NCBI GenBank assembly: GCA_963776315.1
Contig: CAVZMJ010000010.1
Span: forward strand, 148,896-212,895
From: an uncultured Acidobacteriota bacterium
GTDB taxonomy: Bacteria > Acidobacteriota > Vicinamibacteria > Vicinamibacterales > 2-12-FULL-66-21
Reading direction: 5' to 3'
Length of the DNA stretch: 64,000 nucleotides
The notes beneath the pieces are model-generated. The model made no database searches. It saw only the letters and a list, made by a program, of their open reading frames with translations, and was not told the origin of the DNA. Of the stretch, positions 3,912-61,587 are shown one piece after another (position 1 is the first letter of the stretch; each line of letters begins with the position of its first letter). Both the position numbers and the translations under genes were made by a program.

Positions 3912-4702
3912 GCGATGTGGCGTCCATGGCGCCAGGCGTTCAACCATCCCAGTCCGTCTTCGGTGCGGCCGCCGGGTCGATATTCGCAGCCGACCCATCC
4001 TGCGTATCCCAATTCGTCCATCAGACCGAAGAGATACTCGTAGTTGACCTCGCCGCGATCCGGCTCGCCTCGGGCGGGCACCCCGGCAATCTGCACGTGG
4101 CCGATACCCTCGAAGTATCTCCTGAAGGTCGTCTCCAGATCGCCCTCGACAATCTGTGCGTGGTAGAAGTCCATCTGCACTTTGAGGCCTGGCTCGGCTA
4201 TCTCTTCGCGGATCGCGTGCGCCTCGGCCTGCGTGTTGAGAAAGAAGCCGGGGATGTCGCGCGGGTTGATGGCCTCGATGAGCAGCATGCGACCCTCCTT
4301 CGCCACTCGCTGCGCCGCCGCTCTGATGTTGGCGACGTAGACCTCCCGGTGCCGTCGCCGATCGGCGCCGGAGGGGATGCGTCCCGCCAGGGCATGGAGC
4401 CTCGGCGTGCCCAGTACATCGGCATACTCGAGCGCGCGCTCGACACCCGCGAGGAACTCCGCTTCACGGCCGGGAATCGTCGCGCAGCCACGGTCTCCCG
4501 CGTCCCAGTCGCCGGCGGGCGTGTTGAACAGCACGTTCTCGAGCCTGTTGTCCGCCAGCCACCGCGCGATGTCCTGCGGCGGAAACTCGTACGGAAAGAG
4601 GAACTCGACCGCAGTGAAACCCACGCGGGCCGCGGCCTCGAACCGCTGGGGGAACGGCACCTCGGTGAACATCATGCTCAGGTTCGCGGCGAAGCGCGGC
4701 AT
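3908..4702 (-). CDS. Hydroxypyruvate isomerase family protein (Hyi/OtnI-like TIM-barrel)
   Basis: MPRFAANLSMMFTEVPFPQRFEAAARVGFTAVEFLFPYE... is a typical Hyi family N-terminus. It is translationally coupled to the epimerase gene. Confidence 0.85.
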   Translation of the reverse strand: MPRFAANLSMMFTEVPFPQRFEAAARVGFTAVEFLFPYEFPPQDIARWLADNRLENVLFNTPAGDWDAGDRGCATIPGREAEFLAGVERALEYADVLGTPRLHALAGRIPSGADRRRHREVYVANIRAAAQRVAKEGRMLLIEAINPRDIPGFFLNTQAEAHAIREEIAEPGLKVQMDFYHAQIVEGDLETTFRRYFEGIGHVQIAGVPARGEPDRGEVNYEYLFGLMDELGYAGWVGCEYRPGGRTEDGLGWLNAWRHGRHIA

Positions 4703-4774
4703 GTGAACTTGGAAGTATACCGGTCCGGCCAGTTGTCGCGAGGTTCCAGCATGGTTCGATCCGCGTTTGGTCCA

Positions 4775-4925
4775 CCAACCTCCGCTCACGCGAGCCTACG
4801 CCGAAGCGTGAGCTTCGGCTCGGCAAGCCACGCGAAAGGATGCCGCGCCGCAGCGGCGAAGCCGCGAAGGCGGGCCAGTCGCCTCTGAACGAGCTTCGGC
4901 TCGGCAAGCCGCGCAAAGGCGGGCG
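4775..4925. repeat. REP-like intergenic repeats
   Basis: Direct repeats gagcttcggctcggcaagccRcgcRaagg at 4810-4839 and 4891-4919. Hairpin gccgaagc/gcttcggc at about 4800-4819. Confidence 0.55.
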
Positions 4926-5036
4926 TGTGCTCTCTGCTCGAGAGTCACCCGCGCAAATTTTTAAGCCTTTCAGTCTGGCCGAGTTGCAGGAATTGCAATC
5001 CTGGCGGGGCTCCAGGCACACTGCGCGTGTTTTGAG

Positions 5037-9425: not shown

Positions 9426-9441
9426 GCGGGGACACTCAATC

Positions 9442-9478
9442 GGGACACTCAACCGTGACAGTCACGGTTGAGTGTCCC
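9442..9478. terminator. Perfect 18 bp hairpin between convergent genes (GGGACACTCAA family)
   Basis: gggacactcaaccgtgac / gtcacggttgagtgtccc, with an extra direct copy ggggacactcaa at 9428-9439. There is no T-tract, so it could be a bidirectional terminator or a repeat element. Confidence 0.5.
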
Positions 9479-9596
9479 CGCCGCGAGGATCGTGCCACGG
9501 GTCGCAGGAATTGAACGTTCCAGCGCCCTGGTGCTGGAGCAACACGACAGCTCACCGGCAAAGTGTCTTGAATTCAGACGCGCTCCGGACGTCCGT

Positions 9597-11273
9597 CTAC
9601 TTCCCAGGGCGTTCGGGGACACTCAAGGTTGACTGTCCCGGTTGAGTGTCCCCGAGGGCGCGCAAGACCGCCGGGTCGAGGGAATAGACGTCCTTGGCGA
9701 AGCGCAGATCGCCGGCGGCGCCGACCGAGACGGTCCAGTAGACGATGAGGACCGGTAGCGGCGTCTTGAGGAAGACAGTTTGCGACTGCGCGGAGTCGAC
9801 GGCTTCCTGAATGCGTGTCGCGTTCCAGTTGTCCTGTCCATCCAGCAACACGGCGGCCAGGTCGAGCGGCTGCTCGACGCGGATGCAGCCCGAGCTGAAG
9901 GTGCGCTGATCGGTCGCGAACAGCTCCCGGCTCGGCGTGTCGTGCAGAAAGATCGAGTACTGGTTGGGGAAGATGAACTTGACCCGCCCGAGCGCGTTGT
10001 CGGGTCCCGGTGGCTGACGGAGGGTGTAGCGGAAGTTGCCGGGCGTCGCGCTCTGCCAGTCGATCGACGCCGGATCCACGGCGCGCCCCTGTTGATCGAG
10101 AATCGTCAGACGCTTCTTTGCGATGGTGTTCTGCCCCTTGCGCATGCCGGCGAGCACGTCCTGCGCGAGGATCGTCGGCGGCACGGTCCAGTCGGGATTG
10201 AGCACCAGATACTTCATGTCGGCGCGGAACATCGGCGTTTGCCGCGCCTCGCGTCCGATCTGGGTCCGCCCTTCCCAGACGTTCTTGCGATCGCGGATGA
10301 GGTAAACCTTGAACGCGGGCAGGTTGACGAGCACGAACGAGTCGCTCAACCCCGAGACGATCCACCGCGCGCGCTCGAGGTTCACCCGGAGCTGCTGCAC
10401 CCGCACCTCGGCGCTGACGTTCATGGCATCGATCGTCGCCTTCCCGATGACCCCGTCGTCTGTGAGCCGATGATGGACCTGGAAGTCCTTGACGGCTGAC
10501 TCGAGCGCGGCGTCGTAGGCCGTGTCGTCGCCCGATGCCGCGCCCGCGAGCTCGCCGGTGACGCGGAGGCGCTTCCTGATCGCGCCGAGGCGCGGATCCG
10601 TCGCGCCAGGCTTGATCGCCGCCCCGGCCGCGACGGCCGGCCATCCTCCCGAACCGGCGACCGTGCGCATCCGTGCCAGCGCCTCCTTCAGACCGGTATA
10701 GATGAAGTGCGTCGGCTTCTGTGCTTCGATCCCGGTGTCGAGTGCCGGCGCCCGTGCGAGCTCGTCGAGGGCGACATCGAGTGCGGGCGCACCGATACGC
10801 GGGTCGACGTTCCAGCGCTTGTCGAGCGATGAGGGTCGCACGCGCCCGTACCGCACATCGTCGACGAGGACCGCGGCGGCGTCGGCGATGAGCACCTGGA
10901 GGTCGCCCGCGATCTCCGGTGACGGGGCCTTCGTGTAGGCGTCGAGTCCGGCCGTGATGGCGTCCAGGTGATAGTCAGCAGGCGTGAGGCCATCCTGCTC
11001 GACGTTGCGAACGGCCGCGAGCATCTGCTGCGCGCCGCCCGGAAGACGCCAGGCCGGCGCGAACGCGCGCGCTTCGAAGAATCGCGCGACCGCGTCGGGC
11101 TGGATCAGGCGAGTGCCGCGAACGCCCATCGCCGGCTGCAGCCTCACTTGCTCCACGCGCAGCCGGATGGTGTTCTCGACCGTCGGCGGCTGCGCGCCGG
11201 CCGGTCCATGTGCAGCCGGGAAGGAAAGAGCCAGGAAAATGAGGGTGAGAGCAAAGCGCCGATGTCTGGGCAT
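9597..11273 (-). CDS. L,D-transpeptidase (YcbB/LdtD-like, PG-binding plus YkuD domain)
   Basis: FLHDTPSRELFATDQRTFSSGCIRV YkuD active site. The start at ATG 11273 (MPRHRRFALTLIFLALSFPAAHG) gives a signal peptide. Confidence 0.85.
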   Translation of the reverse strand: MPRHRRFALTLIFLALSFPAAHGPAGAQPPTVENTIRLRVEQVRLQPAMGVRGTRLIQPDAVARFFEARAFAPAWRLPGGAQQMLAAVRNVEQDGLTPADYHLDAITAGLDAYTKAPSPEIAGDLQVLIADAAAVLVDDVRYGRVRPSSLDKRWNVDPRIGAPALDVALDELARAPALDTGIEAQKPTHFIYTGLKEALARMRTVAGSGGWPAVAAGAAIKPGATDPRLGAIRKRLRVTGELAGAASGDDTAYDAALESAVKDFQVHHRLTDDGVIGKATIDAMNVSAEVRVQQLRVNLERARWIVSGLSDSFVLVNLPAFKVYLIRDRKNVWEGRTQIGREARQTPMFRADMKYLVLNPDWTVPPTILAQDVLAGMRKGQNTIAKKRLTILDQQGRAVDPASIDWQSATPGNFRYTLRQPPGPDNALGRVKFIFPNQYSIFLHDTPSRELFATDQRTFSSGCIRVEQPLDLAAVLLDGQDNWNATRIQEAVDSAQSQTVFLKTPLPVLIVYWTVSVGAAGDLRFAKDVYSLDPAVLRALGDTQPGQSTLSVPERPGK

Positions 11274-13935: not shown

Positions 13936-14002
13936 GGCGGTCCTCCTTCGTTAACGCTGAGATCTCAAACAGAGAGGCTGGGTGATTCCGGCCCCGTGTC
14001 CG

Positions 14003-14105
14003 CATTTCTCAATGCTCGTGGGGCCCCACCCCCACTCGCTCTCGCGCGGCGACTTCCGCCGTCGCTGCAGCTTCGGCGGACCGCCGTAGCCTTGGCGGAG
14101 GCTGG
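14003..14105. repeat. REP-like dispersed repeat (GGGGCCCCACCCCCACTCGCTCTC family plus GCTWCGGCGGWCCGCCGWAGC unit)
   Basis: gcatttctcaatgctcgtggggccccacccccactcgctctcgcgcggcgac is nearly identical to the reverse complement of 46674-46727 and similar to 17812-17870. The unit at 14070-14105 matches 44990-45024. Confidence 0.6.
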
Positions 14106-14139
14106 TCGCGCCGCGCTCGGGCGCAGGCGCTGCTGTCAG

Positions 14140-15626: not shown

Positions 15627-17087
15627 ATGATCGACCGACTTTGGTATCGCTCTCTCGCGCTGGGCCTCGTACTCGGCGTCGTCGTACCCGGACCAGCTGC
15701 GGCACAGGACGCGCCGCTCAACCTCGCCGAGCTGCTGCCTGACCTCATCCTTCGCGAAATCACGTTGCCCCGGCCGGTTACGGCCGGCTTGTCGCACGTG
15801 GCGCACTTCAGTCCGATCGACGCCGACGAGCTGGACAACCCGGCCGTCGACGTGGTTCGCAGCTTCAACACGCTGATGTTGATGCAGCTCTCGTCATTTC
15901 CGTTGGGGTCGCCGGCCGGCGGTTTCACCTACAAGTTCGACGAAACACTGGGCACGTTCCGGCGGTCGACACCCAGCTTCGGCCCCGTGTTTGCCGAGCG
16001 CGCCGTGACGATGGGCCGGAACCGGTTCAACGCGGGCTTCTCGTATCAGCACACGACATACCAGACCTTCGAAGGCCAGAACCTCGACGGCGGCGCGATC
16101 AAGTTCTACCTCCGCCACGAGGAATGCTGCTCGTCGGGCACTGGCGGCGGCACAGGGGGCGGCGGCGGGGGTAGCGGTGGCGGCGGCGGGCCCGTCGTGA
16201 CGCCGAATGACACGCGGTTCGACCCGCCGTTCGAAGGGGACCTCATCGAGGCGGCGCTCTCGATGAAGACCAGTACGGACACCGCCGTGTTCTCGTTGAA
16301 CTACGGCCTGACCGATCGCTGGGACGTCGGCCTGCTCGTCCCGCTCGTGCACGTCAAGATCGAGGCCGATGTCCAGGCGACCATCATGCGCCTCTCGACG
16401 GCCAACGATCCGCTCACGCACACGTTCGAGGCAGGCAACGCCGCGGCGACGCAGAAGAGCTTCCATGAAGGCGGCTCCGCGACGGGCGTCGGCGACGTCG
16501 TCGTGCGATCGCAGTACCGCTTTCTGGATTTCGCCGGCGGCGGCGTGGCGGGCGGCATCGACGTGCGGATGCCGACAGGCGATCAGAACAATTTGCTCGG
16601 CGCCGGTGGCCAGACCAAGATGTTCGCGATCGTGTCGGGCGGGAACGGCCGGTTCATGCAGCACGCCAACTTCGGCTATACCGCGACCTGGGGCTCGGTG
16701 CCGAACGTGGGCGTGCTCGCCACGCTCGGCGACGAATCGGCGTTGCCCGACGAGCTCAACTACGCGGCCGGCCTCGAGTTCGTCGTGGAGTCGCGGCTGA
16801 CGATTGTCGGCGACGTTCTCGGTCGGACGCTTCGCGACGCAGGCCGGCTGGAGGTCGTCAGCAAGCCGTTCCAGTACGTGACACGGAACGGCGGACCGGT
16901 TCAGGTCGTCAACTTTGACGAGTTCGACCCACGGCCGGGAAACCTGAACCTGACGCTCGGGACTATCGGCGCGAAATACAATCCGACGGGCAACCTGCTC
17001 ATTTCGGCCAGCGTTCTCTTCCCGATCAGCTCGTCTGGGCTCAAGAGCCGGGTGACGCCGGTTATCGGGGTTGACTACGCGTTCTAG
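15627..17087 (+). CDS. Outer-membrane beta-barrel protein, family not recognised
   Basis: GGAGG lies 4 nt before the ATG at 15627. Signal peptide ...PGPAAAQ, alternating beta-strand pattern and a terminal ...VIGVDYAF. Contains EECCSSGTGGGTGGGGGGSGGGGG. Confidence 0.65.
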   Translation: MIDRLWYRSLALGLVLGVVVPGPAAAQDAPLNLAELLPDLILREITLPRPVTAGLSHVAHFSPIDADELDNPAVDVVRSFNTLMLMQLSSFPLGSPAGGFTYKFDETLGTFRRSTPSFGPVFAERAVTMGRNRFNAGFSYQHTTYQTFEGQNLDGGAIKFYLRHEECCSSGTGGGTGGGGGGSGGGGGPVVTPNDTRFDPPFEGDLIEAALSMKTSTDTAVFSLNYGLTDRWDVGLLVPLVHVKIEADVQATIMRLSTANDPLTHTFEAGNAAATQKSFHEGGSATGVGDVVVRSQYRFLDFAGGGVAGGIDVRMPTGDQNNLLGAGGQTKMFAIVSGGNGRFMQHANFGYTATWGSVPNVGVLATLGDESALPDELNYAAGLEFVVESRLTIVGDVLGRTLRDAGRLEVVSKPFQYVTRNGGPVQVVNFDEFDPRPGNLNLTLGTIGAKYNPTGNLLISASVLFPISSSGLKSRVTPVIGVDYAF

Positions 17088-17232
17088 CGGCTCGCTGCTG
17101 GCTGCTCGCTGCTCGCTGCTCGCTGCTCGCTGCTGCTAATTAGCAACCGCTAGCCGCTAGCCGCCAGCCGCTAACTGCTAGCTGCCAGCTGCTGCTACTT
17201 AGCAACCGCTCGCCGCGAGTCGCGAGCCGCGA
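17088..17232. repeat. Heptamer tandem arrays (GCTGCTC)n followed by (GCTAGCC/GCCAGCC)n
   Basis: Strict 7 nt periodicity. Two direct copies of gctgctaNttagcaaccgct, each containing the palindrome gctaattagc or a variant. Fills the gap between convergent genes. Confidence 0.7.
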
Positions 17233-17811: not shown

Positions 17812-17890
17812 CATTTTTCAGCGCTCGCGGGGCCCCACCCCCACTCGCTCTCACTCGGCGTCTTCGCGCCTCGCTCGGGCCGCGGGCGCC
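17812..17890. repeat. REP-like repeat copy abutting the efp-like start codon
   Basis: tcagcgctcgcggggccccacccccactcgctctcactcggcg; same family as 14003 and 46674. Confidence 0.55.
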
Positions 17891-21977: not shown

Positions 21978-22313
21978 ATGAACCGCAAGAGCCTGCCCGC
22001 ACTCGTCTTCGTGCTCGCGGCGGCCGGCATCGTCGCCACGCATGCCCGCCAGGATGCCAAAGCGGACGTAAAGAAGTGGGACGTCGCCGATCCCACCGGT
22101 CCTACGACGACGCTGGCCTTCGATACGAGCGAGGGCACGTGGATGAACGTCGACGTGAGCCCCGATGGCACGCAGGTGGTGTTCGACCTCCTGGGCGACA
22201 TCTATCTCGCGCCGATCGGCATGGTCATGATGAACGGCCGGCTGTACGACGGGAAGACGCTGGCCGAGATCGGTGCGACGAAACGGCCGGCGCCACGATT
22301 CTGGTGGGAGTGA
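21978..22313 (+). pseudogene. Internally deleted remnant of a large TolB-like beta-propeller/amidohydrolase protein
   Basis: 111 aa. The N-terminus KKWDVADPTGPTTTLAFDTSEGTWMNVDVSPDGTQVVFDLLGDIYLAPIG is joined directly to a C-terminal-type tail VMMNGRLYDGKTLAEIGATKRPAPRFWWE. Full-length relatives as I remember them are about 1000 aa. Confidence 0.55.
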
Positions 22314-22324
22314 GGATGTAAGCA

Positions 22325-22655
22325 GCGGAAGAGAACGAATAAGACTCAACACGAAGGAACGAAGCGAACGAAGACGCACGAAGACAACGAGCTGGCTTGG
22401 GTCCCTCTGCCGCTGGTCGCACCGCGCTTCGCGCGGTAGGCAGGGCGTGAGGCCGACGGATCACAAGCACTTCATGAATTTTGCGCGTGCTTGCGATCCG
22501 TCGGCCTCGCGCCCTGCCGTGACGCCGGCCCAAGGGCCGGCGAGCGACCAGCTCGGTGCCCAGTGCCCCGAGGCATACCGGATCTCTCCGTGCGTCTCCG
22601 TTTGCTTCGGTCCTTCGTGTTGAAACCGTTGTCTCCGTCCTCTCCGTCGCCCTCC
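22325..22655. mobile_element. Miniature (RT-less) copy of the palindromic element at 27490-28826
   Basis: Same inverted arms (tcaacacgaaggaacgaagcgaacgaagacgcacgaaga vs its complement at about 22585-22630). Same three hairpins, including the long stem 22439-22470/22487-22518. Confidence 0.65.
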
Positions 22656-22675
22656 AAAGTCCTGGCCGCACGCGG

Positions 22676-23677: not shown

Positions 23678-24339
23678 GGGCCGTCCTGCGCGATCCGATA
23701 GCCCATCCCTCGCACTGTTTCGATGAACGACGGGCCCAGTTTGCGCCGCAGGCGCGCGATGAATACTTCCACCGTGTTCGAGTCCCGGTCGAAGCCCTGC
23801 GAGTAGATGTGCTCGGTCAGCTCGCCCTGCGAGACGAGGCGCCCGCGGTGGTGCATCAGGTAGGACAGCACGCGGAACTCGTGGCTCGTCAGCTTCACCG
23901 GCGTGCCGTTGCGGGTGACGCGCGCGGCACGCGGATCGAGCGCGACGGCGCCACAGCGAAGCTCGGGCGCAAACTGTCCGCTGGCGCGGCGGATGAGAGC
24001 GCGCAGGCGTGCCAGGACTTCCTCCATCCGGAACGGCTTCGCCACATAGTCGTCCGCGCCGCCGTCGATCCCCTGCACCTTCTCGTGCCAGCTTCCACGC
24101 GCCGTCAGGAGCAGTACGGGTATCGCCAGGCCCTCTTCACGCCATCTCCTCAGCACCGTCAGCCCATCCACTTTTGGCAGGCCGAGGTCGAGCACCACCG
24201 CGTCGTACCGTTCGGTCCTCCCGAGAAAGTCGGCTCGCTCGCCGTCGGCGGCGCAGTCGACCGCGTACCCGGCCTCGCCGAGCGCGGCTGCGAGCTGCCG
24301 CAACAGCTGCGCTTCATCTTCGACGACCAGGACTCGCAC
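23674..24339 (-). CDS. OmpR/PhoB-family response regulator
   Basis: VRVLVVEDEAQLL...VVLDLGLPKVDG...ADDYVAKPF plus a winged helix. The GTG at 24339 is preferred; the longest ORF extends to 24387. Confidence 0.9.
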   Translation of the reverse strand: MRVLVVEDEAQLLRQLAAALGEAGYAVDCAADGERADFLGRTERYDAVVLDLGLPKVDGLTVLRRWREEGLAIPVLLLTARGSWHEKVQGIDGGADDYVAKPFRMEEVLARLRALIRRASGQFAPELRCGAVALDPRAARVTRNGTPVKLTSHEFRVLSYLMHHRGRLVSQGELTEHIYSQGFDRDSNTVEVFIARLRRKLGPSFIETVRGMGYRIAQDGP

Positions 24340-25050: not shown

Positions 25051-27472
25051 TTGCAGTGGATTGAGTCGGCAGGCCGCGACGTGCGGCACGCGTGCCGCAT
25101 GGTCGCCCGGATGCCTGTCCTTGCGATGGTCGTCATCCTCTCGCTCGGCGTTGGCATCGGCGTCAACGTCGTCATCTTCTCGTGGATTCAAGCCGTCGTC
25201 TTTCAGCCGATTCCCGGCGTCGCCGACGCCGCGAGCTTTCACCTCGTCGAGCCGCGCACCGAGACGGGCATGAATCCGGGCACGTCCTGGCTCGAGTACC
25301 GCGATCTGCGGGAGCGCTTGCAGACGTTCCGCGATCTGCTGGCGTTTCGGATGACGCCGCTCTACGTCGGCGAGTCGGGACAGGTGGAGCGGGCGTACGG
25401 GCTGCTCGTCTCCGGCAACTACTTCACGGCCCTCGGTCTGCAGCCGGTTCGAGGCCGCTTCTTCCGTCTCGACGAGGCCGCCACTCCCGGCGGCGAACCG
25501 GTGGCGGTGATCTCTGCACGAGTACTGGCAGAGTCACCTCGCTGGTGCGCCGACGGCGGTGGGACAGAGGATTCGGGTCAACGGCCGCGACATCACCGTC
25601 GTCGGCGTCGCGCCGCAGGGGTTCCAGGGCACGGTACTGCGGCTGAAGTTCGATCTGTGGTTGCCGGCCACCATGGCGCAGGCGCTGCTCAACGGATCGC
25701 GAGAGCTCGACGAGCGTGGTGCCCGCGGCTATACAGCCACGGGCCTTCTCCGGCCTGGGACGACGCGCGAGCAGGCGCAGAGCGATGTGGACGGAGTGAT
25801 GCGGCAGTTGTCGCAGCAGTATCCCGAGACGAACGCCACCATGCAGGCCGAGGTGTTGCCGTTCTGGCAGTTCTCGCGCGGGCCGCAGCGTTTCCTGGTA
25901 ACGGCGCTCGCGTTTCTGCAGGCCATCATGCTGCTGCTCCTGGTCGCGGTGTGCGGCAACACGGCGAACCTCATGCTGGCGCGCGCCAGCGCCCGTCAGC
26001 GTGAGATGGGCATGCGGCTGGCGCTCGGCGCCGGACCCTGGCGTATCGTGCGCCTGCTGCTGGCGGAGAACCTGATGCTCGCGCTCGCCGGCGCGGCGCT
26101 GGGCATCGCGATCGGCGTCTGGGGAACGCGCGCACTGTCCGCGGTACCGCTGACGATCGGCTTGCCGATCAATTTCGAGACGCACGTCGACCTGGGCGGG
26201 CTCCTGTTCGCGGCGTCGCTCGGCCTCGCGTGCGGCGCGATCTTCGGGGCCGCCCCGGCATTTCATCTTGCACACCTGGACCCGCAGGTCGCGTTCCGCG
26301 CCGGCGCGTCGCCCGCTGGCCGCAGCCGGTTGCGCAACAGCCTCATGGCCGTCCAGGTGGCGCTGGCACTGATGGTGCTCGTGGCGGCAGGCCTTTTTCT
26401 CCGCAGCTTCCTCGAGACGCGCGACACCGACCCGGGCTTCCGCCGTGAAGGTGTGCTGCTCGCGGCCTACGATCTCACCGGCCGAAATGCTGACGATGGG
26501 TTTGCCCGCACGTTTGCCAGCCGGCTTCTCGACCGGCTGCGGGCATTGCCGTCGGTCGACGGCGTCGCCATTGCGTCGTCCATTCCGCTCGACATTCACG
26601 GACTGCCGTCCCGCGTCTTCAGCGTCGACGGCTGGGTGCGCGCGGCGTCGGGGTTCGATCAGGCGCTCGCGAACACGGTCACGCCAGGCTACTTCGCTGT
26701 GATGGACATTCCGCTCCTCGCGGGGAAGGATTTTGCCGACCTGCGCGACACGTCGACGCCTCCACAAGTCATCGTCAACGAGGCGTTCGTGCGGCGCTAT
26801 CTCGCCCGCCTCGAGCCGCTCGGCCGGCGCCTGCAGGCGCGCGGCCGGTCGTACGTGATTGCCGGCGTTGCCCGCAACTCGCTCTACAACGCCTTCGGCG
26901 AGCCGCCGACGCCCATCATCTACTTCTCGTACCGCGACGGCCCCACGCGCGTGGGAGAGATACACTTACGCACAAGGGCCGGAAGCGAGACGGCAGTCGC
27001 GTCAGCCGTGCGCAACACCGTGCGCGAGCTCGATCCCGAGCTGCCGGTCTACAACGTCAGGACGCTGACGGCCCACGTCGAGACCAGCCTGCTTTTCCGG
27101 CGCATTCCTGCGCGGATGTTCGCCGTCCTCGGGCCCATGCTCCTCGTGCTGGCAGCGATCGGGATCTACGCCGTCGTGTCCTACACCGTGTCGCAACGGA
27201 CGACCGAGATCGGCGTGCGCCTCGCGCTCGGCGCGACGCCACAGGGCGTCGTCGCCCAGTTCGCGCGCGAGAGCCTGTTCGTCATCAGTGTCGGCGCGCT
27301 GGCCGGCTGGGCGATCGCCTTGAGCGCGCTCATCGTCCTTCGGGGCCCGATGGACGTCGCGATTCTTGCCGGCGTGCCGGCACTCCTGATGACGGTGGCG
27401 GCCAGCGCCTGCTGGCTGTCAGCGCGTCGTGCCGCACGCTGCGATCCGATGGCCGCGCTGCGCCAGCAGTAG
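25051..27472 (+). pseudogene. ADOP family duplicated permease, one frameshift
   Basis: ORF 25051..26004 is genuine to ...GGEPVAVIS. The sequence continues in the frame of ORF 25559..27472 as HEYWQSHLAGAPTAVGQRIRVNGRDITVVGV. One extra base at about 25516 (atc tct G cac gag). Confidence 0.8.
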
Positions 27473-27489
27473 AGTTGCCGGAGGGGACG

Positions 27490-28826
27490 CTTCGGAGGAG
27501 ACGAAGCGAACCGGAGAAGACTCGACACGAAGGAACGAAGCGAACGAAGACGCACGAAGACAACGAGCTGGACTCGAGTCCCTGCAGCTGGTCGCACCGC
27601 GCTTCGCGCGGTCGGCTGGGCGTGAGTGGCGACGGATCACAAGCACTCCGTGAATCCTGCTCGTGCTTGTGATCCGTCGCCACTCACGCCCAGCCGTGAC
27701 GCCGGCCAAGGCCGGCGTTCGACAGCCGACGGCAGTGCCCGCAGGGGCTAGCCCCGTCGGCGCGGTCCGGGCCCGGTGGGTGTGGACCGCACCTGAAGTG
27801 TGGACGGAGCGGATGCTGACGGCGCTCGAACAGGGCGTCAGAGGAGGCCGATGGTACACGTTGATGGACAAGGTCTATGCGCTGCCAACGCTGCGGGCCG
27901 CCTTCGCGCGAGTGAGGGCGAATCGCGGGGCGGCTGGTGTGGACCATGTGACGATCGCGATGTATGAGGCGCGACTCGACGCGAATCTCGCCGCGCTGTC
28001 GGCGTCGTTGCAGGACGGCACCTACCGCCCGCAGCCGATTCGCCGGCACTGGATTCCGAAAGGGCCGCGCGAGCGGCGCCCCCTCGGGATTCCGACCGTG
28101 CGGGACCGCGTCGTGCAAACCGCTCTGCGTCTGGTCGTGGAACCGATCTTCGACGTCACGTTCGCCGAGCACAGCTACGGCTTTCGTCCGCGTCGGGGCG
28201 CCAAGGCTGCGCTCCGCCGGGTGAACGCGTTGCTGCGCGCCGGCTATCGTTACGTCGTGGACGCGGACCTCCAAGCCTACTTCGACACCATCCCGCTCGC
28301 ACCGCTGCGCGCGCGGGTGGCGGCGAAGGTCAGCGACAGTCGGGTGCTCGCCCTCGTCGACGCCTTCCTGCACCAGCCCATCGTCGAGGGGCTGGCGCAG
28401 TGGACGGTCGAGGAGGGGACCCCGCAAGGCGCGGTCATCAGCCCCGTGCTCGCCAATCTGTATCTCGACCCGCTCGACCACGCGATGGTCGCGGCGGGCT
28501 TCGAGATGGTGCGCTACGCGGACGACTTCGTCGTCCTGTGTCGCACAGCGGACGAAGCGCAGCAAGCACTGGCGGTCGTGCAGCGCTGGACGGCAGCGGC
28601 AGGGCTGCGGCTGCATCCCGAGAAAACACATCTCGTGGACCTGCAGTCCCCGGGCGGCTTTGACTTTCTCGGCTACCACTTCGAGCGGCGCTATCGTCTG
28701 CCGCGCACGAAGAGTCTGCGGAAGCTCAACAGCTCAGCGCGCAGTGCCCGAACCATTCCCGGATCTCTCCGTGCGTCTTCGTTCGCTTCGTTTCTTCGTG
28801 TTGAACCCGTTGCCTCCGTCGCCTCC
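27490..28826. mobile_element. About 1.3 kb palindromic element carrying a truncated reverse transcriptase ORF
   Basis: Inverted arms 27495-27571 and 28760-28826 (core roughly 40 of 44 matching by eye). Three hairpins at 27596-27716, then the RT ORF. Imperfect direct repeats ending in gcagtgcccg at 27732-27741 and 28741-28750 bracket the RT segment. Confidence 0.65.
27614..27695 (+). other. Perfect 33 bp stem with 16 nt loop upstream of the RT (candidate structured RNA or DNA hairpin)
   Basis: ggctgggcgtgagtggcgacggatcacaagcac / gtgcttgtgatccgtcgccactcacgcccagcc. Flanked by accgcgc-ttc-gcgcggt (27596-27612) and gccggcc-aa-ggccggc (27701-27716). Confidence 0.6.
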
Positions 28827-28856
28827 AATGCCACGCACTCTCCACTTCCGATTTGA
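27663..28856 (+). CDS. Group-II-intron-type reverse transcriptase, lacking thumb/maturase (X) and endonuclease regions
   Basis: WTERMLTALEQGVRGGRWYTLMDKVYALPTLRAAFARVRANRGAAGVDHVTI (RT0/1), RRPLGIPTVRDRVVQ, GFRPRRG, GTPQGAVISPVLANLYLDPLD, RYADDFVVLC, LHPEKTHLV, GFDFLGYHF. The homologous part ends at ...RLPRTKSLRKL and the rest reads through the right arm. The real start is probably ATG 27813 or a nearby GTG. Confidence 0.8.
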   Translation: MLVIRRHSRPAVTPAKAGVRQPTAVPAGASPVGAVRARWVWTAPEVWTERMLTALEQGVRGGRWYTLMDKVYALPTLRAAFARVRANRGAAGVDHVTIAMYEARLDANLAALSASLQDGTYRPQPIRRHWIPKGPRERRPLGIPTVRDRVVQTALRLVVEPIFDVTFAEHSYGFRPRRGAKAALRRVNALLRAGYRYVVDADLQAYFDTIPLAPLRARVAAKVSDSRVLALVDAFLHQPIVEGLAQWTVEEGTPQGAVISPVLANLYLDPLDHAMVAAGFEMVRYADDFVVLCRTADEAQQALAVVQRWTAAAGLRLHPEKTHLVDLQSPGGFDFLGYHFERRYRLPRTKSLRKLNSSARSARTIPGSLRASSFASFLRVEPVASVASNATHSPLPI

Positions 28857-28924
28857 CGCCGCCAGCAACGTTGGATACTGTGCGAATGCTCGGCGGCTCT
28901 TCCGCTGGTGCTTCAGGAGACGAC

Positions 28925-29437
28925 ATGGACCAATCTCAGGCACAGTTTCTCGCCCAGTATCTCTGCAAGCTCTGGGAAGGCGAGTTCCCCGCGACGCTCA
29001 AGGTCATCGCCGCGGTCCCCGACGACAAGCGCACGTATCGTCCAGACGAGAAGTCCCGCACGGCCTGGCAGCTGGCGACGCACCTCGCGACGGCTGACAT
29101 CTGGTTCGCCGACAGCGTTGTCGCGGGCAGTTTCGTGTTCGATCCCGCGGTCGCCAAGCAGCGCGAGTCGCTGTTCGGATCGGTCGCGGACGTCGTCGCC
29201 TACTACAAGAAGGAATTTCCCGCCGCGCTCGACCGCGTCCGCGCGATACCCGCCGACAAGCTGGCGGCCACGGTGGACTTCTTCGGCGTCATGCAGATGC
29301 CGAATGTGACCTACCTCGGCTTCGCCAACAACCACTCGGTGCATCACCGCGGCCAGCTGGCCGCGTACCTCCGCGCGATGGGGTCGAAGGTGCCGGCGAT
29401 CTACGGCGACAGCGCCGACGAGAAGATGGGCGGGTGA
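28925..29437 (+). CDS. DinB family protein
   Basis: MDQSQAQFLAQYL...WQLATHLATADIWF...NNHSVHHRGQLAAYLRAMG is a DinB-type His triad pattern. Confidence 0.8.
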   Translation: MDQSQAQFLAQYLCKLWEGEFPATLKVIAAVPDDKRTYRPDEKSRTAWQLATHLATADIWFADSVVAGSFVFDPAVAKQRESLFGSVADVVAYYKKEFPAALDRVRAIPADKLAATVDFFGVMQMPNVTYLGFANNHSVHHRGQLAAYLRAMGSKVPAIYGDSADEKMGG

Positions 29438-29519
29438 TCGTTCGCGAGGCAACGGAAGTGGCCGACCAGCCTCCGCTTGCCCCGACCTCGTCAGCTTCGG
29501 GATAGAGTAGTGGTGACTC

Positions 29520-30227
29520 ATGTCCACTGACTACTCGACCCTCGAAGGCGCGCTCGTTTCCGCGGTTGGTCCTCTCCGCCTGATCGCCGTCTCGTATCTG
29601 TCAGCCGCTCCACAGGGAGTGGAGCAGTTCTCGGGCACGGTTCCGTCCGGGTGCACGTTCTGGAGCCTCGCCGCGAGCGGCAACGGCTTCTACACGGTGC
29701 CGGACGATCACCTGAACTGTCCGATCGGCAGCTACACGCACGCGATCGATCGGCCCGCCGGCCGCGAGGCGGAGCTCGAGCAGGCGCTGACGCTGATGGC
29801 GGGCATCGGCTACGTGCGGATGGAAGAGGTTCCTGCGATTCCGCGCCTGGCGAAGTCGCCCGCGTTCATCTATTACGCTCCGCTCGGGAAGGCGGTCGTC
29901 GCGCCCGACGTGATCATCGCGGCTGGGCGGCCGGGGCCGCTGATGCCGCTCCAGGAAGCTGCCGCGCGCGCCGGCGCCGCGTCACAGCTCCCGTTGCTCG
30001 GCCGTCCGACGTGCATGGCGCTACCCGCGGCGATGGCTCACGGATCGGTCATGAGCACCGGTTGCGTCGGCAACCGCGTCTACACCGGCCTCGGCGACGA
30101 TGAGCTCTATTTGATGATTCCTGGTCCGCGGCTTGCGGATGTTGTGAAGGAGCTCGCGGTGATCACGACCGCGAACGACACGCTGCTGCAGTATCACGAG
30201 CAGCGCCGCGCGACGCTGACATCGTAG
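29520..30227 (+). CDS. DUF169-like protein
   Basis: 235 aa with conserved Cys pattern (SGCTFW, LNCPIGSYTH, RPTCMALP, STGCVGNRVY) as I recall for DUF169. Confidence 0.6.
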   Translation: MSTDYSTLEGALVSAVGPLRLIAVSYLSAAPQGVEQFSGTVPSGCTFWSLAASGNGFYTVPDDHLNCPIGSYTHAIDRPAGREAELEQALTLMAGIGYVRMEEVPAIPRLAKSPAFIYYAPLGKAVVAPDVIIAAGRPGPLMPLQEAAARAGAASQLPLLGRPTCMALPAAMAHGSVMSTGCVGNRVYTGLGDDELYLMIPGPRLADVVKELAVITTANDTLLQYHEQRRATLTS

Positions 30228-30366
30228 CTTGCTGCTCGCTGCTCGCTGCTCGCTGCTCGCTGTTGCCAACCCGGGCCGCCAGCCGGGAGCCGCCAGCGGG
30301 GAGCCGCCAACCCGAGCCGCCAGTCGCCAGCCGCGACCGGCGAGCCGCCGCCCGTCAGCCGCGGAC
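30228..30366. repeat. Heptamer tandem arrays (GCTGCTC)4 followed by (GAGCCGCCA/AGCCGSS)n
   Basis: Same first motif as 17088-17140. Starts right after the DUF169 stop. Confidence 0.6.
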
Positions 30367-38926: not shown

Positions 38927-39023
38927 GGCTCAGGGCTCAGGGCTCAGGGCTCAGGCAAAACCTTCGACCACATACTCGAGGGTTCTGGCTTGGCCCTGAG
39001 CCCTGAGCCCTGAGCCCTGAGCC
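38927..39023. repeat. GGGCTCA-heptamer palindromic element
   Basis: (ggctcag)x4-gcaaaacc ... core ttcgaccacatactcgagg ... ggcc-(ctgagcc)x4. Confidence 0.8.
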
Positions 39024-42151: not shown

Positions 42152-42248
42152 GGGATCAGGGATCAGGGATCAGGAAGAGCATTCAAGGCTTAGCCCGCTC
42201 GGCTGAGATCTGAACGCTCTTCCCGATCCCTGATCCCCGATCCTTGAA
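42152..42248. repeat. GGGATCA-heptamer palindromic element
   Basis: (gggatca)x3-ggaagagc ... gctcttcc-cgatccctgatccccgatcc. An extra attcaagg/ccttgaat pair lies in the loop and after the right arm. Confidence 0.7.
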
Positions 42249-44887: not shown

Positions 44888-44989
44888 CGTTGCAGTCTCC
44901 TCCCGATTTCTGCTAACGCCGGGCCCCATCACGAATCGTCTGCCGTCTTCTTGGTCGAGCCCAGGTCCGGCTGACCAGCTTCCGCTGAA

Positions 44990-45034
44990 GCTACGGCGGT
45001 CCGCCGAAGCCTTGGCGAAGGCGGAAGCCGGAGG
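44990..45034. repeat. REP-like unit GCTACGGCGGTCCGCCGAAGC-CTTGGCGAAGGCGG
   Basis: Same unit as 14070-14105. Contains the hairpin cggcgg-t-ccgccg. Abuts the stop of the methyltransferase gene. Confidence 0.5.
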
Positions 45035-46012: not shown

Positions 46013-46674
46013 TTGTCCACCGTTCAGCACGGGAGATCGCAGGCGCTCTCCGTCGCGGCAGAGGAGCTGGTGCGGGCGGGGCGCCGTTTCGACCAGCGAG
46101 GCTGGGTCCAGGGGACGAGCGGCAACTTCAGCGTCGTCATCGACCGCGATCCGCTGCGGCTGGCGATCACGCCGAGCGCGACGTTCAAGGGCGAGCTCGA
46201 CGCGGACCACATTCTCGAGATGGACGAGCGTGGCACGCCGGTCGGGGGCGGGACGGCGCGTGTGTCGGCTGAAGCGCTCCTGCACGTCGAAATCGTTCGC
46301 GCGCGTGGTGCCGGAGCAGTGCTCCACACCCACTCGATCTGGAGCACGCTCCTCTCCGGGCGCTTCGGAGACGCCGGTGGGTTCTCGATCGAGGGTTACG
46401 AGATGCTCAAGGGACTCGAAGGCGTCGCACGCACGAGCATCGCGAGTGGTTGCCGATCGTCGAGAACGACCAGGACATGGCGCGCCTGTCGGGCGTCGTG
46501 CGCGGCGTGCTCGACCAGCATCCGGATGCGCACGGCTTCCTGCTGCGCCGTCACGGACTCTACACCTGGGGTGCCGATCTGGCGCAGGCCGTCCGGCACG
46601 TGGAGATTCTGGAGTTCCTGATGGAAGTCGTTGGGAGAGATGAGGAGCGCCTGCGGCCCGAGCGCGGCGCGTAG
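46013..46674 (+). pseudogene. mtnB: Methylthioribulose-1-phosphate dehydratase, one frameshift (or indel error)
   Basis: GRRFDQRGWVQGTSGNFS...VLHTHS...YEMLKGLEGV, then the frame of ORF 46450..46674: THEHREWLPIVENDQDMARL...GFLLRRHGLYTWG. Shift near 46425-46432. Confidence 0.75.
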
Positions 46675-46727
46675 TCGCCGCGCGAGAGCGAGCGGGGGTG
46701 GGGCCCCGCGAGCATTGAGAAATGCAG
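46674..46727. repeat. REP-like repeat (reverse orientation copy of 14003-14056)
   Basis: gtcgccgcgcgagagcgagcgggggtggggccccgcgagcattgagaaatgc; two mismatches to the reverse complement of the 14003 copy by eye. Confidence 0.6.
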
Positions 46728-46770
46728 ACTCAGCCTTTTGTAGGAACATGCGACTAGAAGGAGCCTCACC

Positions 46771-48429: not shown

Positions 48430-48571
48430 GGGCTCAAAGGGTCAAGGCTCAGGGCTCAAGGCTCAGGCAAAAGCCTTCTGCCCTGATGAAGATCAGTATG
48501 CTCTTCCCTGAGCCCTGAGCCCTGAGCCCTGAGCCCTGAGCCCTGAGCCCTGAGCGCCCTGAGCCTGAGCC
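48430..48571. repeat. GGGCTCA-heptamer palindromic element (long right arm)
   Basis: ggctcaaagggtcaaggctcagggctcaaggctcaggc ... (cctgagc)x7 and more. The right arm runs into the stop codon of the M13 gene. Confidence 0.8.
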
Positions 48572-51630: not shown

Positions 51631-51721
51631 ACAGGCTCAAGGGTCAAGGCTCAGGACTGAAACAAGGTCTTCGAGTGTGCAGTCGAAAGGGTTTGCCCTG
51701 AGCCCTGAGTCCTGAGCCTGT
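51631..51721. repeat. GGGCTCA-type palindromic element, reverse orientation core
   Basis: acaggctcaagggtcaaggctcaggac ... cttcgagtgtgcagtcgaaag ... gccctgagccctgagtcctgagcctgt. Confidence 0.75.
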
Positions 51722-55847: not shown

Positions 55848-56132
55848 TCACTGCGCGGCGCGGACGGCGATTACGTGATTCTGCGTGCGATAGAGCAGGG
55901 CGCCCTCTGAGATCGCCGGCGTCGAGAGGACGCTCTCGGTCATGTCGTTCTCGGCCAGCACCTCGAACGCCGGGCCGGCCTTGAGCACGCAGACGTGTCC
56001 CTCCTCGCTCGCGAGGTAGATCTTGCCGTCGGCGGCGATGGGCGACGAAGTGAACGCCGACAAGCCGCCCGCGAGGCGCTGCCAGAATCGCGGATGCGTG
56101 GCATACGGGACGCGGGCGGATCGAAGACAGGC
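55848..56132 (-). pseudogene. C-terminal remnant of a PQQ-like beta-propeller repeat protein
   Basis: The in-frame stretch RVPYATHPRFWQRLAGGLSAFTSSPIAADGKIYLASEEGHVCVLKAGPAFEVLAENDM...ISEGALLYRTQNHVIAVRAAQ opens only inside the palindromic element at 56127. No N-terminal body is present. Confidence 0.6.
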
Positions 56133-56220
56133 TCAAGGCTTTGGGCTCAGGGCTCAGGCAAAACCTTTCGACTACACACTCGAAGATCTTGCTTGAGCCC
56201 TGAGCCTGAGCCCTGAGCCT
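56127..56220. repeat. GGGCTCA-type palindromic element with conserved core
   Basis: acaggctcaaggctttgggctcagggctcaggc aaaacc tttcgactacacactcgaag ... gcttgagccctgagcctgagccctgagcct. Flanked by cgcgggcggatcg and cgatccgcgatccgcg. Confidence 0.8.
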
Positions 56221-61480: not shown

Positions 61481-61560
61481 GGGCTCAGGGCTCAGGAAAG
61501 AACTCGCTGTCCCTAGTCGCAGGGCTAGGATCGGTATGTTCTTGCCTGAGCCCTGAGCCC
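61481..61560. repeat. GGGCTCA-type palindromic element
   Basis: gggctcagggctcaggaaagaac ... gttcttgcctgagccctgagccc. Confidence 0.7.
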
Positions 61561-61587
61561 TGATCGATTGATCCATGCGCATCGACA

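Follow-up and report, generated by a model that had tools for sequence, protein, structure and literature searches.

In the 64,000-nt stretch of DNA analysed here (hereafter the window), a reverse transcriptase (RT) gene lies inside a palindromic element, copy B, and a second copy of the element, copy A, occurs elsewhere in the window free of any RT (Table 1). The original prediction, made from the letters alone, had described inverted arms of about 70 nt enclosing three hairpins and the RT gene, and this geometry was borne out, every feature lying at the stated coordinates or no more than a few nt away. The arms pair without gaps over a core of 39 nt (27522-27560 with 28766-28804, 92% complementary), and their similarity extends, with one 6-nt indel, to about 27495 and 28826. 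Hairpin 1 is present as described with its 7-bp stem; the long hairpin is perfect as claimed, while its stem measures 34 bp rather than 33 bp; and hairpin 3, predicted as a 7-bp stem at 27701-27716, extends to 9 bp (27699-27707 with 27710-27718). Arms and hairpins are not a product of chance: their sequences recur at 22320-22660.

Table 1. Features of the RT locus (copy B) and of the empty element (copy A) in the window; a slash within a sequence marks an insertion point or junction
Feature	Position	Strand	Remarks
Copy A, empty palindromic element	22325-22655		arms, three hairpins; target gagcgac/cagctc unoccupied at 22548/22549
Left arm, copy B	27495-27571		degenerate CGAAG-type short repeats; 95% identical over 60 nt to copy A left arm 22336-22395
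Hairpin 1 (ACCGCGC-TTC-GCGCGGT)	27596-27612		7-bp GC stem, read directly
Long hairpin	27613-27696		stem 27613-27646 with 27663-27696, 34 bp, 100% complementary, 16-nt loop
Chimeric ORF, 397 aa	27663-28856	+	only codons 21-356 are RT
Hairpin 3 (ACGCCGGCC-AA-GGCCGGCGT)	27699-27718	+	stem-loop recognised by the intron family upstream of the insertion site
5' exon end TCGAC, IBS1-like	27719-27723	+	insertion point after 27723
Internal group II intron fragment	27724-28729	+	intron nt 472/473-1478 of 1869; RT residues 8-342 of 442 (RT0-RT7, fingers and palm)
3' exon, inner right part of element	28730-28765		begins exactly at the 3' exon start of the empty copies
Right arm, copy B	28760-28826		81% identical over 97 nt to copy A 22549-22645

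The ORF carrying the RT is a chimera, its head of 20 codons running through the hairpins and its tail of 42 codons through the 3' exon and the right arm, and the sequences of both head and tail also exist without the RT, in copy A and in L118, the orthologous ADOP-permease/DinB locus of a related genome (85-89% nucleotide identity), where the element is empty. An in-frame ATG at 27813 is the start used for the relative P0037. The RVT_1 domain is complete (Pfam, E 2e-36), and the NCBIfam model TIGR04416 'group II intron RT/maturase' scored 319.9 bits (cutoff 300), with only model positions 4-282 of 353 matched; motifs RT0 to RT7 including YADD are intact and the RT part carries no disabling substitution, in agreement with the group-II-type motifs reported earlier. 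Homology with full-length relatives ends after ...RTKSLRKL, at residue 342 of 442, just where the original prediction had placed its end (RLPRTKSLRKL), and the frame does read on through the right arm, its tail belonging to the element. For the X/maturase (thumb) domain, Pfam gave no GIIM match in the ORF; in P0001, the nearest protein among the matches listed (96-97% identical; 96% of amino acids over P0001 residues 8-348), GIIM (PF08388) spans residues 340-404.

Alignment by blastn of window positions 27723-28729 with 4022-5028 of the intact intron locus L001 gave 92% identity over 1007 nt without gaps. The intact introns, which were copies from related Vicinamibacterales-type contigs, are 1869 nt long, begin with GTGCG some 450 nt ahead of the ORF and encode a 442-aa RT and maturase, and domain V/VI (RF00029) directly follows the ORF in L001, L002, L113, L115, L116 and L003 (48-56 bits, cutoff 40). 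The relatives' proteins (442-444 aa, 92-97% identical) comprise RVT_1 and GIIM only, without an endonuclease domain. Relative to these introns, the window fragment is missing ribozyme domains I-III and V-VI as well as, from the coding sequence, the first 7 codons with the start codon and the X/maturase domain. The 5' GUGYG and ribozyme domains I-III have no counterpart upstream of the window ORF, no other piece of the intron was found in the 64-kb window, and Rfam detected no group II RNA (RF00029, domain V/VI) in 26500-30000 at E<=10 or in the whole window at gathering score, as the claim that ribozyme domains are absent had foreseen. It had also been stated that colinear intact introns would reduce the locus to an intron fragment beside unrelated repeats. 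The first part holds, in relatives at 92% nucleotide identity over 27723-28729, while the second does not: hairpin 3 with the TCGAC behind it is the intron's homing site, and three independent intact copies occupy the equivalent place in elements of this type. When a full-length homolog was compared with solved structures, it scored 229 bits against GsI-IIC, 186 against the E. rectale IIC RT, 146 against IIB, 125 against IIA and 55 against G2L4. We call the intron family class C-like from RT similarity, size, the missing En domain and target behaviour, and not from a curated phylogeny or a complete secondary structure modelled for the ribozyme. A search with the RT of the contigs of a genome collection gave a top match of 84% in a 3-kb contig of a Gemmatimonadaceae bin, and others of at most 69%.

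Copy A lies between convergent genes, the neighbouring ORFs ending at 22313 (+) and 22676 (-), and its RNA fold reaches -213.8 kcal/mol (z-score -15.8). Both copies in the window stand directly behind gene ends, and the element is multi-copy, intergenic and strongly self-complementary, as are REP-, BIME- or MITE-like repeats. Hairpin 1 occurs also in copy A (27582-27626 against 22407-22451, 93%), in the intron-bearing loci L001, L002 and L115, in L118 and in metagenome copies that keep their interior; the long hairpin is near-perfect in copy A and in the ortholog L118, with mirrored changes, and is also present in RT-less metagenome copies; and at L117 arms only were found. At the perfect hairpin, Rfam matched only spurious miRNA models (26500-30000 at E<=10; whole window at gathering score). 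The right arm of copy B is 82-90% like the arms around the intact introns in L001 and L002 as well, and the 3' exon of copy B, cagctcagcgcgcagtgcccg..., aligns with cagctcggtgcccagtgccccg... in copy A and cagcctcagtgccg... in L118. Element arms were found at 30 metagenome loci, and intron or RT sequence at 0/30. Given the empty copy A, the empty L118 and these 30 intron-free loci, the palindrome is a repeat independent of the RT, and the arms and three hairpins are a property of this host repeat, not of the RT.

One option left by the original prediction was that the RT is cargo of a hairpin element. In a wider form of this reading, the RT would be carried by the palindromic element or supply its mobility, with the 1.3-kb unit as the autonomous form and the 330-nt copies as its MITE-like derivatives. 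The RT-less short copies and the one RT-bearing copy indeed have arms and hairpins in common, and similar patches of 19-21 nt (CAGC..CAGTGCCCG) flank the RT piece and could mediate its deletion. However, the RT of the relatives belongs to entire group II introns that stand by themselves within the element and have 5' and 3' termini of their own, the same intron family follows unrelated hairpins outside the element, the patch on the left is part of the conserved reading frame and agrees with the family consensus (QPT.VP.GA), and the arm-bearing metagenome loci hold no RT sequence, so that we give the cargo reading next to no credence.

Intact introns occupy the same type of element at three independent loci, namely L001, L115 and L002 (identical with L113), where they begin 7 nt past the equivalent CGCCGGCC...GGCCGGCG hairpin, and the window fragment begins 5 nt past hairpin 3, behind TCGAC. 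This pentanucleotide corresponds to ...GCGAC/ before GTGCG in the intact introns and to gagcgac/cagctc in copy A, and it is complementary to GTCG(A) at intron position ~178. The family also stands behind unrelated hairpins outside the element (L003, L114, L116 and 20 other sites). At 27/27 distinct family sites the intron stands behind a GC hairpin, which ends 0-8 nt upstream of it, and the last 4 exon nucleotides are complementary to the EBS1 loop (aligned intron position 170-190) at 24/27, while permuting exon ends among introns as a control gave a mean of 4.5 and a maximum of 10 complementary sites. Judged by these comparisons, hairpin 3 with the following TCGAC is the homing site of the intron, and a hairpin combined with 4-nt IBS1/EBS1 covariation is behaviour of class C (IIC). 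It has been reported that IIC introns sit downstream of terminators or other inverted repeats, with recognition of a stem-loop and a 3-4-bp IBS1 (PMC1702495). By analogy with the relatives and published IIC biology, the intact form would consist of about 450 nt of ribozyme domains I-III, a 442-aa RT and maturase ORF in domain IV, and domains V/VI; it would read a DNA or RNA stem-loop together with a 4-5-nt IBS1 (...CGAC) and one IBS3 nucleotide, and would insert a few nt downstream of the hairpin, for which hairpin 3 and TCGAC/C of the repeat would be such a site.

We propose, with a probability of roughly 90%, that the RT gene is the middle piece of a class C-like (hairpin-targeting) group II intron, dead and doubly truncated, at its usual homing site in a pre-existing palindromic intergenic repeat. 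The locus is a decayed mobile element and no new RT system, and since it represents a doubly truncated intron, the earlier statement that its architecture matches no described RT system fails. Among the possibilities then put forward, the one supported, by the intact colinear introns and the homing site, is that of an IIC-like, hairpin-targeting intron which was trapped in a palindromic repeat and has decayed. As the ribozyme 5' half, the first 7 codons, the thumb/maturase and the catalytic domain V are absent, the window copy would be unable to splice or move and is almost certainly inactive, and a thumb-less RT may still be expressed from the chimeric ORF.

The last of the earlier options, a functional ncRNA-associated RT module of retron or DRT kind, would make the hairpins the template or primer RNA of a thumb-less RT, and it can point to an open ORF with intact RT0-RT7, YADD included, and to structured sequence directly upstream. 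Yet copy A, L118 and those metagenome copies whose interior is retained bear these hairpins without any RT, the X/thumb domain and native start codon are absent, the scan of 27300-29000 found no sigma-70-like promoter, and the truncated architecture or the tail was present in 0 of the best 120 protein matches listed, for which query coverage ends at 87-95%. Retron and DRT profiles also scored 5-6x below the group II score. With the PADLOC and NCBIfam profiles, retron models reached 29-52 bits against 320 for group II, in line with the claim that the RT is not retron-like, and retron and DRT models together 52-60 bits or below; the top DRT profile, UG17, gave 149 bits against 276 for a generic group-II-like RT model. 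An msr-msd ncRNA would be linked to its RT, while the upstream hairpins here belong to a repeat also found without one; DRT, UG and G2L enzymes are conserved stand-alone RTs with a thumb in a non-intron context, while the nearest relatives here lie inside complete introns. The module reading is thus very improbable. Assignment to retron, DRT, UG or CRISPR-RT classes (PADLOC, NCBIfam) was rejected on these scores and on the context of the relatives.

Among known systems, the closest are the IIC introns, such as B.h.I1 of Bacillus halodurans and GsI-IIC of Geobacillus stearothermophilus. Like them, the intact relatives are small (1869 nt), with an RT and X ORF that lacks an endonuclease, a GUGYG 5' end and an RF00029 domain V/VI, and they insert a few nt past a GC stem-loop with a 4-5-nt IBS1 covarying with EBS1 (PMC1702495); the window copy is of the same RT family and in the same target context. 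Unlike them, it is intron nt 472/473-1478 only, without ribozyme or maturase, and its target hairpin lies in a complex palindromic repeat without a T-run and is no Rho-independent terminator. Fragmentation at the 5' or 3' end is a general trend in bacterial group II introns according to Dai and Zimmerly's compilation as summarised in PMC2504315, which puts truncation down to incomplete reverse transcription or rearrangement. The fragments covered in that summary are, like ours, partial introns in an intergenic or mobile-DNA context (PMC2504315), while the window copy is without both ends and is an internal ORF piece with breakpoints exactly at the exon junctions. Structured repeats as targets have precedents as well: REP sequences of P. 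putida KT2440 are targeted by IS elements and a group II intron, 2/9 intron copies being REP-associated (PMC1525189), and IIC introns are associated with integrons, which bear attC sites, the IIC-attC introns sitting in attC hairpins (PMC7923331). In these cases and in ours a multi-copy structured repeat serves as landing pad, but ours is a larger, composite repeat, about 330 nt long with arms of short repeats and three hairpins, from Vicinamibacterales-like Acidobacteriota. The likeness to retrons, DRT/UG and G2L, that of a ribozyme-less RT gene beside structured non-coding sequence, is superficial, for the RT is 92-97% identical to intron RTs and without a thumb, and the adjacent structure is a host repeat found RT-free.

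Both breakpoints of the fragment lie within 1 nt of the intron-exon boundaries, and exon nucleotides were neither lost nor added: the junctions in copy B read ...GTTCGAC/AGCCGACGG and ...GCTCAA/CAGCTCAGCG, and the empty sites gagcgac/cagctcgg (copy A) and gtgcgac/cagcctcag (L118). This geometry is a hint that the event was an abortive retrohoming, or was assisted by homology, more than that two random deletions took place; since complete exon sequence adjoins both ends of the fragment, we judge an event linked to retrohoming, or to recombination with empty copies of the element, to be no less likely than two separate deletions at a later time. An assembly artefact, a repeat-induced misjoin in this metagenome-assembled genome, could in principle have made the truncated intron, given that there are multiple copies both of group II introns and of the palindromic repeat, and that many relatives were assembled as isolated contigs of about 2 kb. 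However, the window flanks are colinear with L118 on both sides, and the sequence common across the two junctions, just 4-11 nt, is too short for a k-mer misjoin, which we regard as highly unlikely.

While the element's identity is not at stake, the route to the doubly truncated intron may have been either full insertion followed by two deletions or a single event, in which an internal piece of intron RNA or cDNA (nt 473-1478) was put into the empty homing site and no full intron ever stood there. The single event might have proceeded by abortive retrohoming in which the intron RT switched templates end to end, by RT-mediated or end-joining repair of a break opened at the homing site, or by homology-assisted capture via the CAG...CAGTGCCCG patch. 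Consistent with it, the two junctions are blunt and at most 1 nt away from exact, the orthologous site in L118 is empty, and the first 24 nt of the 3' exon, when slid along the intron, match best at nt 467-472 (score 11-12), which is one breakpoint, and second or third best at nt 1472 (score 9; several 8s), which is the other. On the other hand, the RNA or cDNA intermediate is hypothetical, the match at nt 1472 barely exceeds background, a single AGCTCA would be expected after a crossover within the homology patches but two are present, a crossover in the left patch requires an additional 1-nt loss, and a single such locus has been seen. We therefore consider a one-step origin possible, at somewhat below even odds. 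More doubtful is the narrower proposal that the intron RT, switching templates or repairing a break, wrote the piece into the exact, otherwise intact homing site, or that the piece was captured there via the patch. Three local explanations were tried and rejected: a target-site duplication of the 3' exon at the left junction, the left patch being in-frame, family-consensus ORF sequence; direct-repeat slippage at AGCTCA for the right junction, both AGCTCA copies being kept; and cleavage at a cryptic IBS1 as in B.h.I1, the internal CGAC lying 4-7 nt after the left breakpoint, not before it. The exact coincidence of breakpoints with exon junctions is not predicted by simple decay.

The locus leaves current understanding unchanged, and it carries a caution for RT mining, where an RT beside hairpins without a ribozyme can be an intron fragment in its own hairpin target; the quickest tests for such RTs are a search for an empty copy of the flanking repeat and for a colinear intact intron in relatives. 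The comparison also puts on record a family of IIC-like introns from Vicinamibacterales-type Acidobacteriota and related soil bacteria, some members of which have a composite palindromic repeat as their safe, multi-copy landing site, and the 27 sites provide a clean comparative demonstration of a hairpin together with 4-nt IBS1/EBS1 covariation. As one example of an internal fragment whose exon junctions are exact, the locus may help to explain how introns without an endonuclease fail in retrohoming, and, if the one-step origin is true, it would record, as a genomic fossil, the aberrant retrohoming of such an intron, of IIC type, in its landing-pad repeat.

In DNA of 66% G+C long ORFs come about easily; the antisense frame 27684-28679 is likewise open over 331 codons. 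The ratio of non-synonymous to synonymous codons was 0.52-0.71 between the fragment and intact copies, against 0.46-0.66 among intact copies at comparable divergence. As this substitution pattern over codon positions is the same as among intact copies, the fragment is young, too young for decay or selection to be read from it. At the 210 highly conserved columns of the family it carries 5 mismatches, the family median being 3.

The inverted arms, the three hairpins, the reverse transcriptase (RT) ORF and the absence of a ribozyme, which the original prediction had described as an unrecognised architecture, are all present in the sequence of this element (copy B), and its arms reach about 27495 and 28826 once one 6-nt indel is allowed. 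Scored against NCBIfam's model for group II intron RT/maturases, the ORF reached 319.9 bits (cutoff 300), its match being confined to model positions 4-282 of 353. Rfam gave no group II RNA hit around the ORF with the threshold relaxed to E<=10, and none across the 64-kb window. The ORF is chimeric, as codons 1-20 of 397 are hairpin sequence and the last 42 codons are 3' exon plus right arm, the same sequence existing in RT-less copies. The open frame is uninformative: in this window of 66% G+C DNA, an antisense frame stays open for 331 codons as well. No sigma-70-like promoter was detected.

Features of the RT-bearing palindromic element (copy B)
Feature	Position in window	Description
Inverted arms, gapless core	27522-27560 vs 28766-28804	39 nt, 92% complementarity
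Hairpin 1	27596-27612	7-bp stem
Long hairpin	27613-27646 / 27663-27696	perfect 34-bp stem, 16-nt loop
Hairpin 3	27699-27718	GC stem, 7-9 bp
ORF	27663-28856	397 aa, complete RVT_1 domain

A protein search returned hundreds of relatives of 442-444 aa with RVT_1 and a group II maturase domain, several of which NCBI lists as Vicinamibacterales group II intron RT/maturases, and full-length relatives were up to 96-98% identical to the window RT, the figure varying with the stretch aligned. In the closest full-length protein, P0001, residues 8-342 align with the window RT and divergence sets in beyond residue 342; since GIIM occupies residues 340-404, the whole maturase/thumb domain is absent from the window copy. 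Intact introns for comparison were taken from six relatives (L001, L002 and L113-L116) and a genome-collection contig (L003). These introns measure 1869 nt, open with GTGCG, have their ORF some 450 nt from the 5' end and show an RF00029 domain V/VI match (48-56 bits, cutoff 40) directly 3' of the ORF's stop codon, with the exception of L114, whose 3' end is disrupted. Window positions 27723-28729 correspond to intron nt 472-1478, gapless and at 92% identity, and the remaining intron parts were found nowhere in the 64-kb window. This alignment identifies the RT piece as an internal part of a mobile group II intron. On the 5' side it has lost domains I-III and the first seven codons, on the 3' side the X domain and domains V-VI; with these losses the window copy is unable to splice or retrohome, and its protein would have no thumb. 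A same-family RT, P0065 (84% identical, 360 aa), carries a frameshift just where RT and X meet (the frame is lost after ...KSLKKLKDAV) and may represent a second decayed intron copy.

The arm motif was found again at 22360 and 22596, within an RT-less copy (copy A, ~22325-22655) that occupies the gap between two convergent genes, keeps the same arms and three hairpins in the same order, and is predicted to fold up as a single large, cruciform-like structure (-213.8 kcal/mol, z -15.8). Alignment of the two copies placed the RT segment between ...gttcgac and cagctcagcg... of copy B, the counterpart in copy A being uninterrupted (...gagcgac/cagctcggtg..., 22548/22549). Metagenome copies of the element collected by a degenerate arm pattern lacked the intron at 30/30 loci, a single weak match (63 nt at 79% identity) occurring in one, and many share the architecture of arms, short GC hairpin, long near-perfect hairpin and CGCCGGCC...GGCCGGCG hairpin. 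At L118, a relative's orthologous locus (nucleotide identity 89% for the ADOP permease and 85% for DinB), the element is complete and unoccupied (...ggccggcgtgcgac/cagcctcagtgccg...); at the orthologous locus L117 it is reduced to its two arms, fused. The RT-less copies (copy A, the metagenome loci and L118) thus mark the arms and hairpins as a host repeat that is older at this locus than the RT.

The long hairpin, compared at window 27613-27696, at 22439-22518 and at L118:3195-3280, retains near-perfect symmetry, changes in one arm being mirrored in the other, a 1-nt indel among them; variants are TGGC/GCCA in copy B, GTC/GAC in L118 and GCC/GGC in copy A, and GGCTGGG/CCCAGCC in copy B and L118 versus GGCAGGG/CCCTGCC in copy A. 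Metagenome stems are quite different in sequence, always 30-35 bp and near-perfect, with a conserved loop-proximal GATCAC[AG]AGCAC. The mirrored changes suggest that selection for structure, or arm-to-arm templated correction, may have acted. The upstream ADOP-family permease gene (25051-27472) is split over two reading frames, its pieces matching TIGR03434 at positions 3-151 (25051 to ~25520) and 164-802 (25559-27472), and is either frameshifted (a pseudogene) or affected by sequencing error; gene calls of the L118 ortholog are fragmented too.

Intact introns occupy the same element type at three independent loci (L001, L002, which is the L113 locus, and L115), where the arms are 82-90% identical to the window arms, three hairpins lie upstream, and the intron begins 7 nt past hairpin 3 (...GGCCGGCGACGCGAC/GTGCG). 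More distant members of the family sit behind unrelated GC hairpins. A hairpin ends 0-8 nt upstream of the intron at 27/27 distinct insertion sites, and the last four exon nt are complementary to a variable intron loop at 24/27, against a mean of 4.5 and a maximum of 10 of 27 when exon ends were permuted among introns. This loop lies at intron position ~178, between conserved GAGCCTGC and GGCGAA motifs, and the window 5' exon end TCGAC fits EBS1, GTCG(A), in the intact introns closest to the window copy. By these sequence matches, the hairpins of the element are the homing site of the intron. In its stem-loop plus short IBS1/EBS1 recognition, small size and RT-plus-X ORF without an endonuclease domain, the family is like IIC introns, for which these traits have been described (PMC1702495), and its best solved-structure relatives are IIC RTs (GsI-IIC, 229 bits; E.r. 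IIC, 186 bits). Identity as a retron, a DRT/UG system or a G2L RT was rejected by RT profile and structure-relative comparisons.

IIC introns lie behind terminators and other inverted repeats (PMC1702495) and are the class reported with integrons (PMC7923331), a P. putida intron lies in REPs (2/9 copies; PMC1525189), and fragmentation of bacterial group II introns is a reported general trend (PMC2504315). The closest described systems are IIC introns behind inverted repeats, fragmented group II introns and mobile elements targeting repeated palindromes, and the locus itself is a decayed group II intron of ordinary type, lying in a palindromic repeat that holds its homing site. Elements of this kind are known, and the origin of an internal fragment with exact junctions is the modest remaining curiosity.

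Compared with intact copies, the fragment has the same third-position bias as in intact-vs-intact comparisons, a non-synonymous/synonymous codon ratio of 0.52-0.71 (0.46-0.66 intact-vs-intact, comparable divergence) and 5 mismatches at 210 highly conserved columns (family median 3); on these figures the fragment is recent. The two junctions are exact. No nucleotide of the 5' exon is missing up to ...GTTCGAC (27723), next to which AGCCGACGG begins (intron nt 473, codon 8); the fragment ends in ...GGAAGCTCAA at 28729 (intron nt 1478), and with the adjoining CAGCTCAGCG the 3' exon starts, as set by copy A and the L118 ortholog. If two unrelated deletions had come later, one would not expect them to end at both boundaries of the intron. 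When the first 24 nt of the copy B 3' exon were slid along the intron, the best match in the whole intron was at nt 467-472, and nt 1472 ranked second or third; these positions are the fragment's two breakpoints. The junctions suggest one of two origins: illegitimate recombination, assisted by homology, with an empty copy of the element, or one-step insertion at the homing site, in which an internal intron piece would have been inserted via template switching or abortive retrohoming. Models of simple slippage fail at the right junction, as both copies of AGCTCA are kept. The start of the element's 3' exon (28730-28752, CAGCTCAGCGCGCAGTGCCCGAA) is similar to the beginning of the ORF piece that is kept (27723-27743, CAGCCGACGGCAGTGCCCGCA), where L001 reads ACAGTGCCCGAAGG in its ORF. 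The patch CAGTGCC(C)GA also occurs in empty copy A and L118, and is therefore older than the insertion.

The sole tRNA gene of the window, tRNA-Leu(CAG) at 23717-23797, bears no relation to the RT locus. Other palindromic intergenic elements (38927-39016, 42153-42243, 48439-48535, 51640-51718, 56113-56219, 61481-61563; 17076-17207, 30220-30292) have arms of tandem heptamers, (GGGCTCA)n / (TGAGCCC)n and (GCTCGCT)n, and the L116 intron sits in yet another short-repeat-armed palindrome (arms CAGGAGAT); several families of such palindromes seem to be plentiful in the genome. A palindromic repeat pair with GGGACACTCAA lies at 9427-9480 and 9614-9654, ~135 nt apart, and a dispersed repeat family of 60-110 nt (83-95% identity, both orientations) occurs at 13998-14107, 17812-17889, 44973-45030 and 46647-46729.
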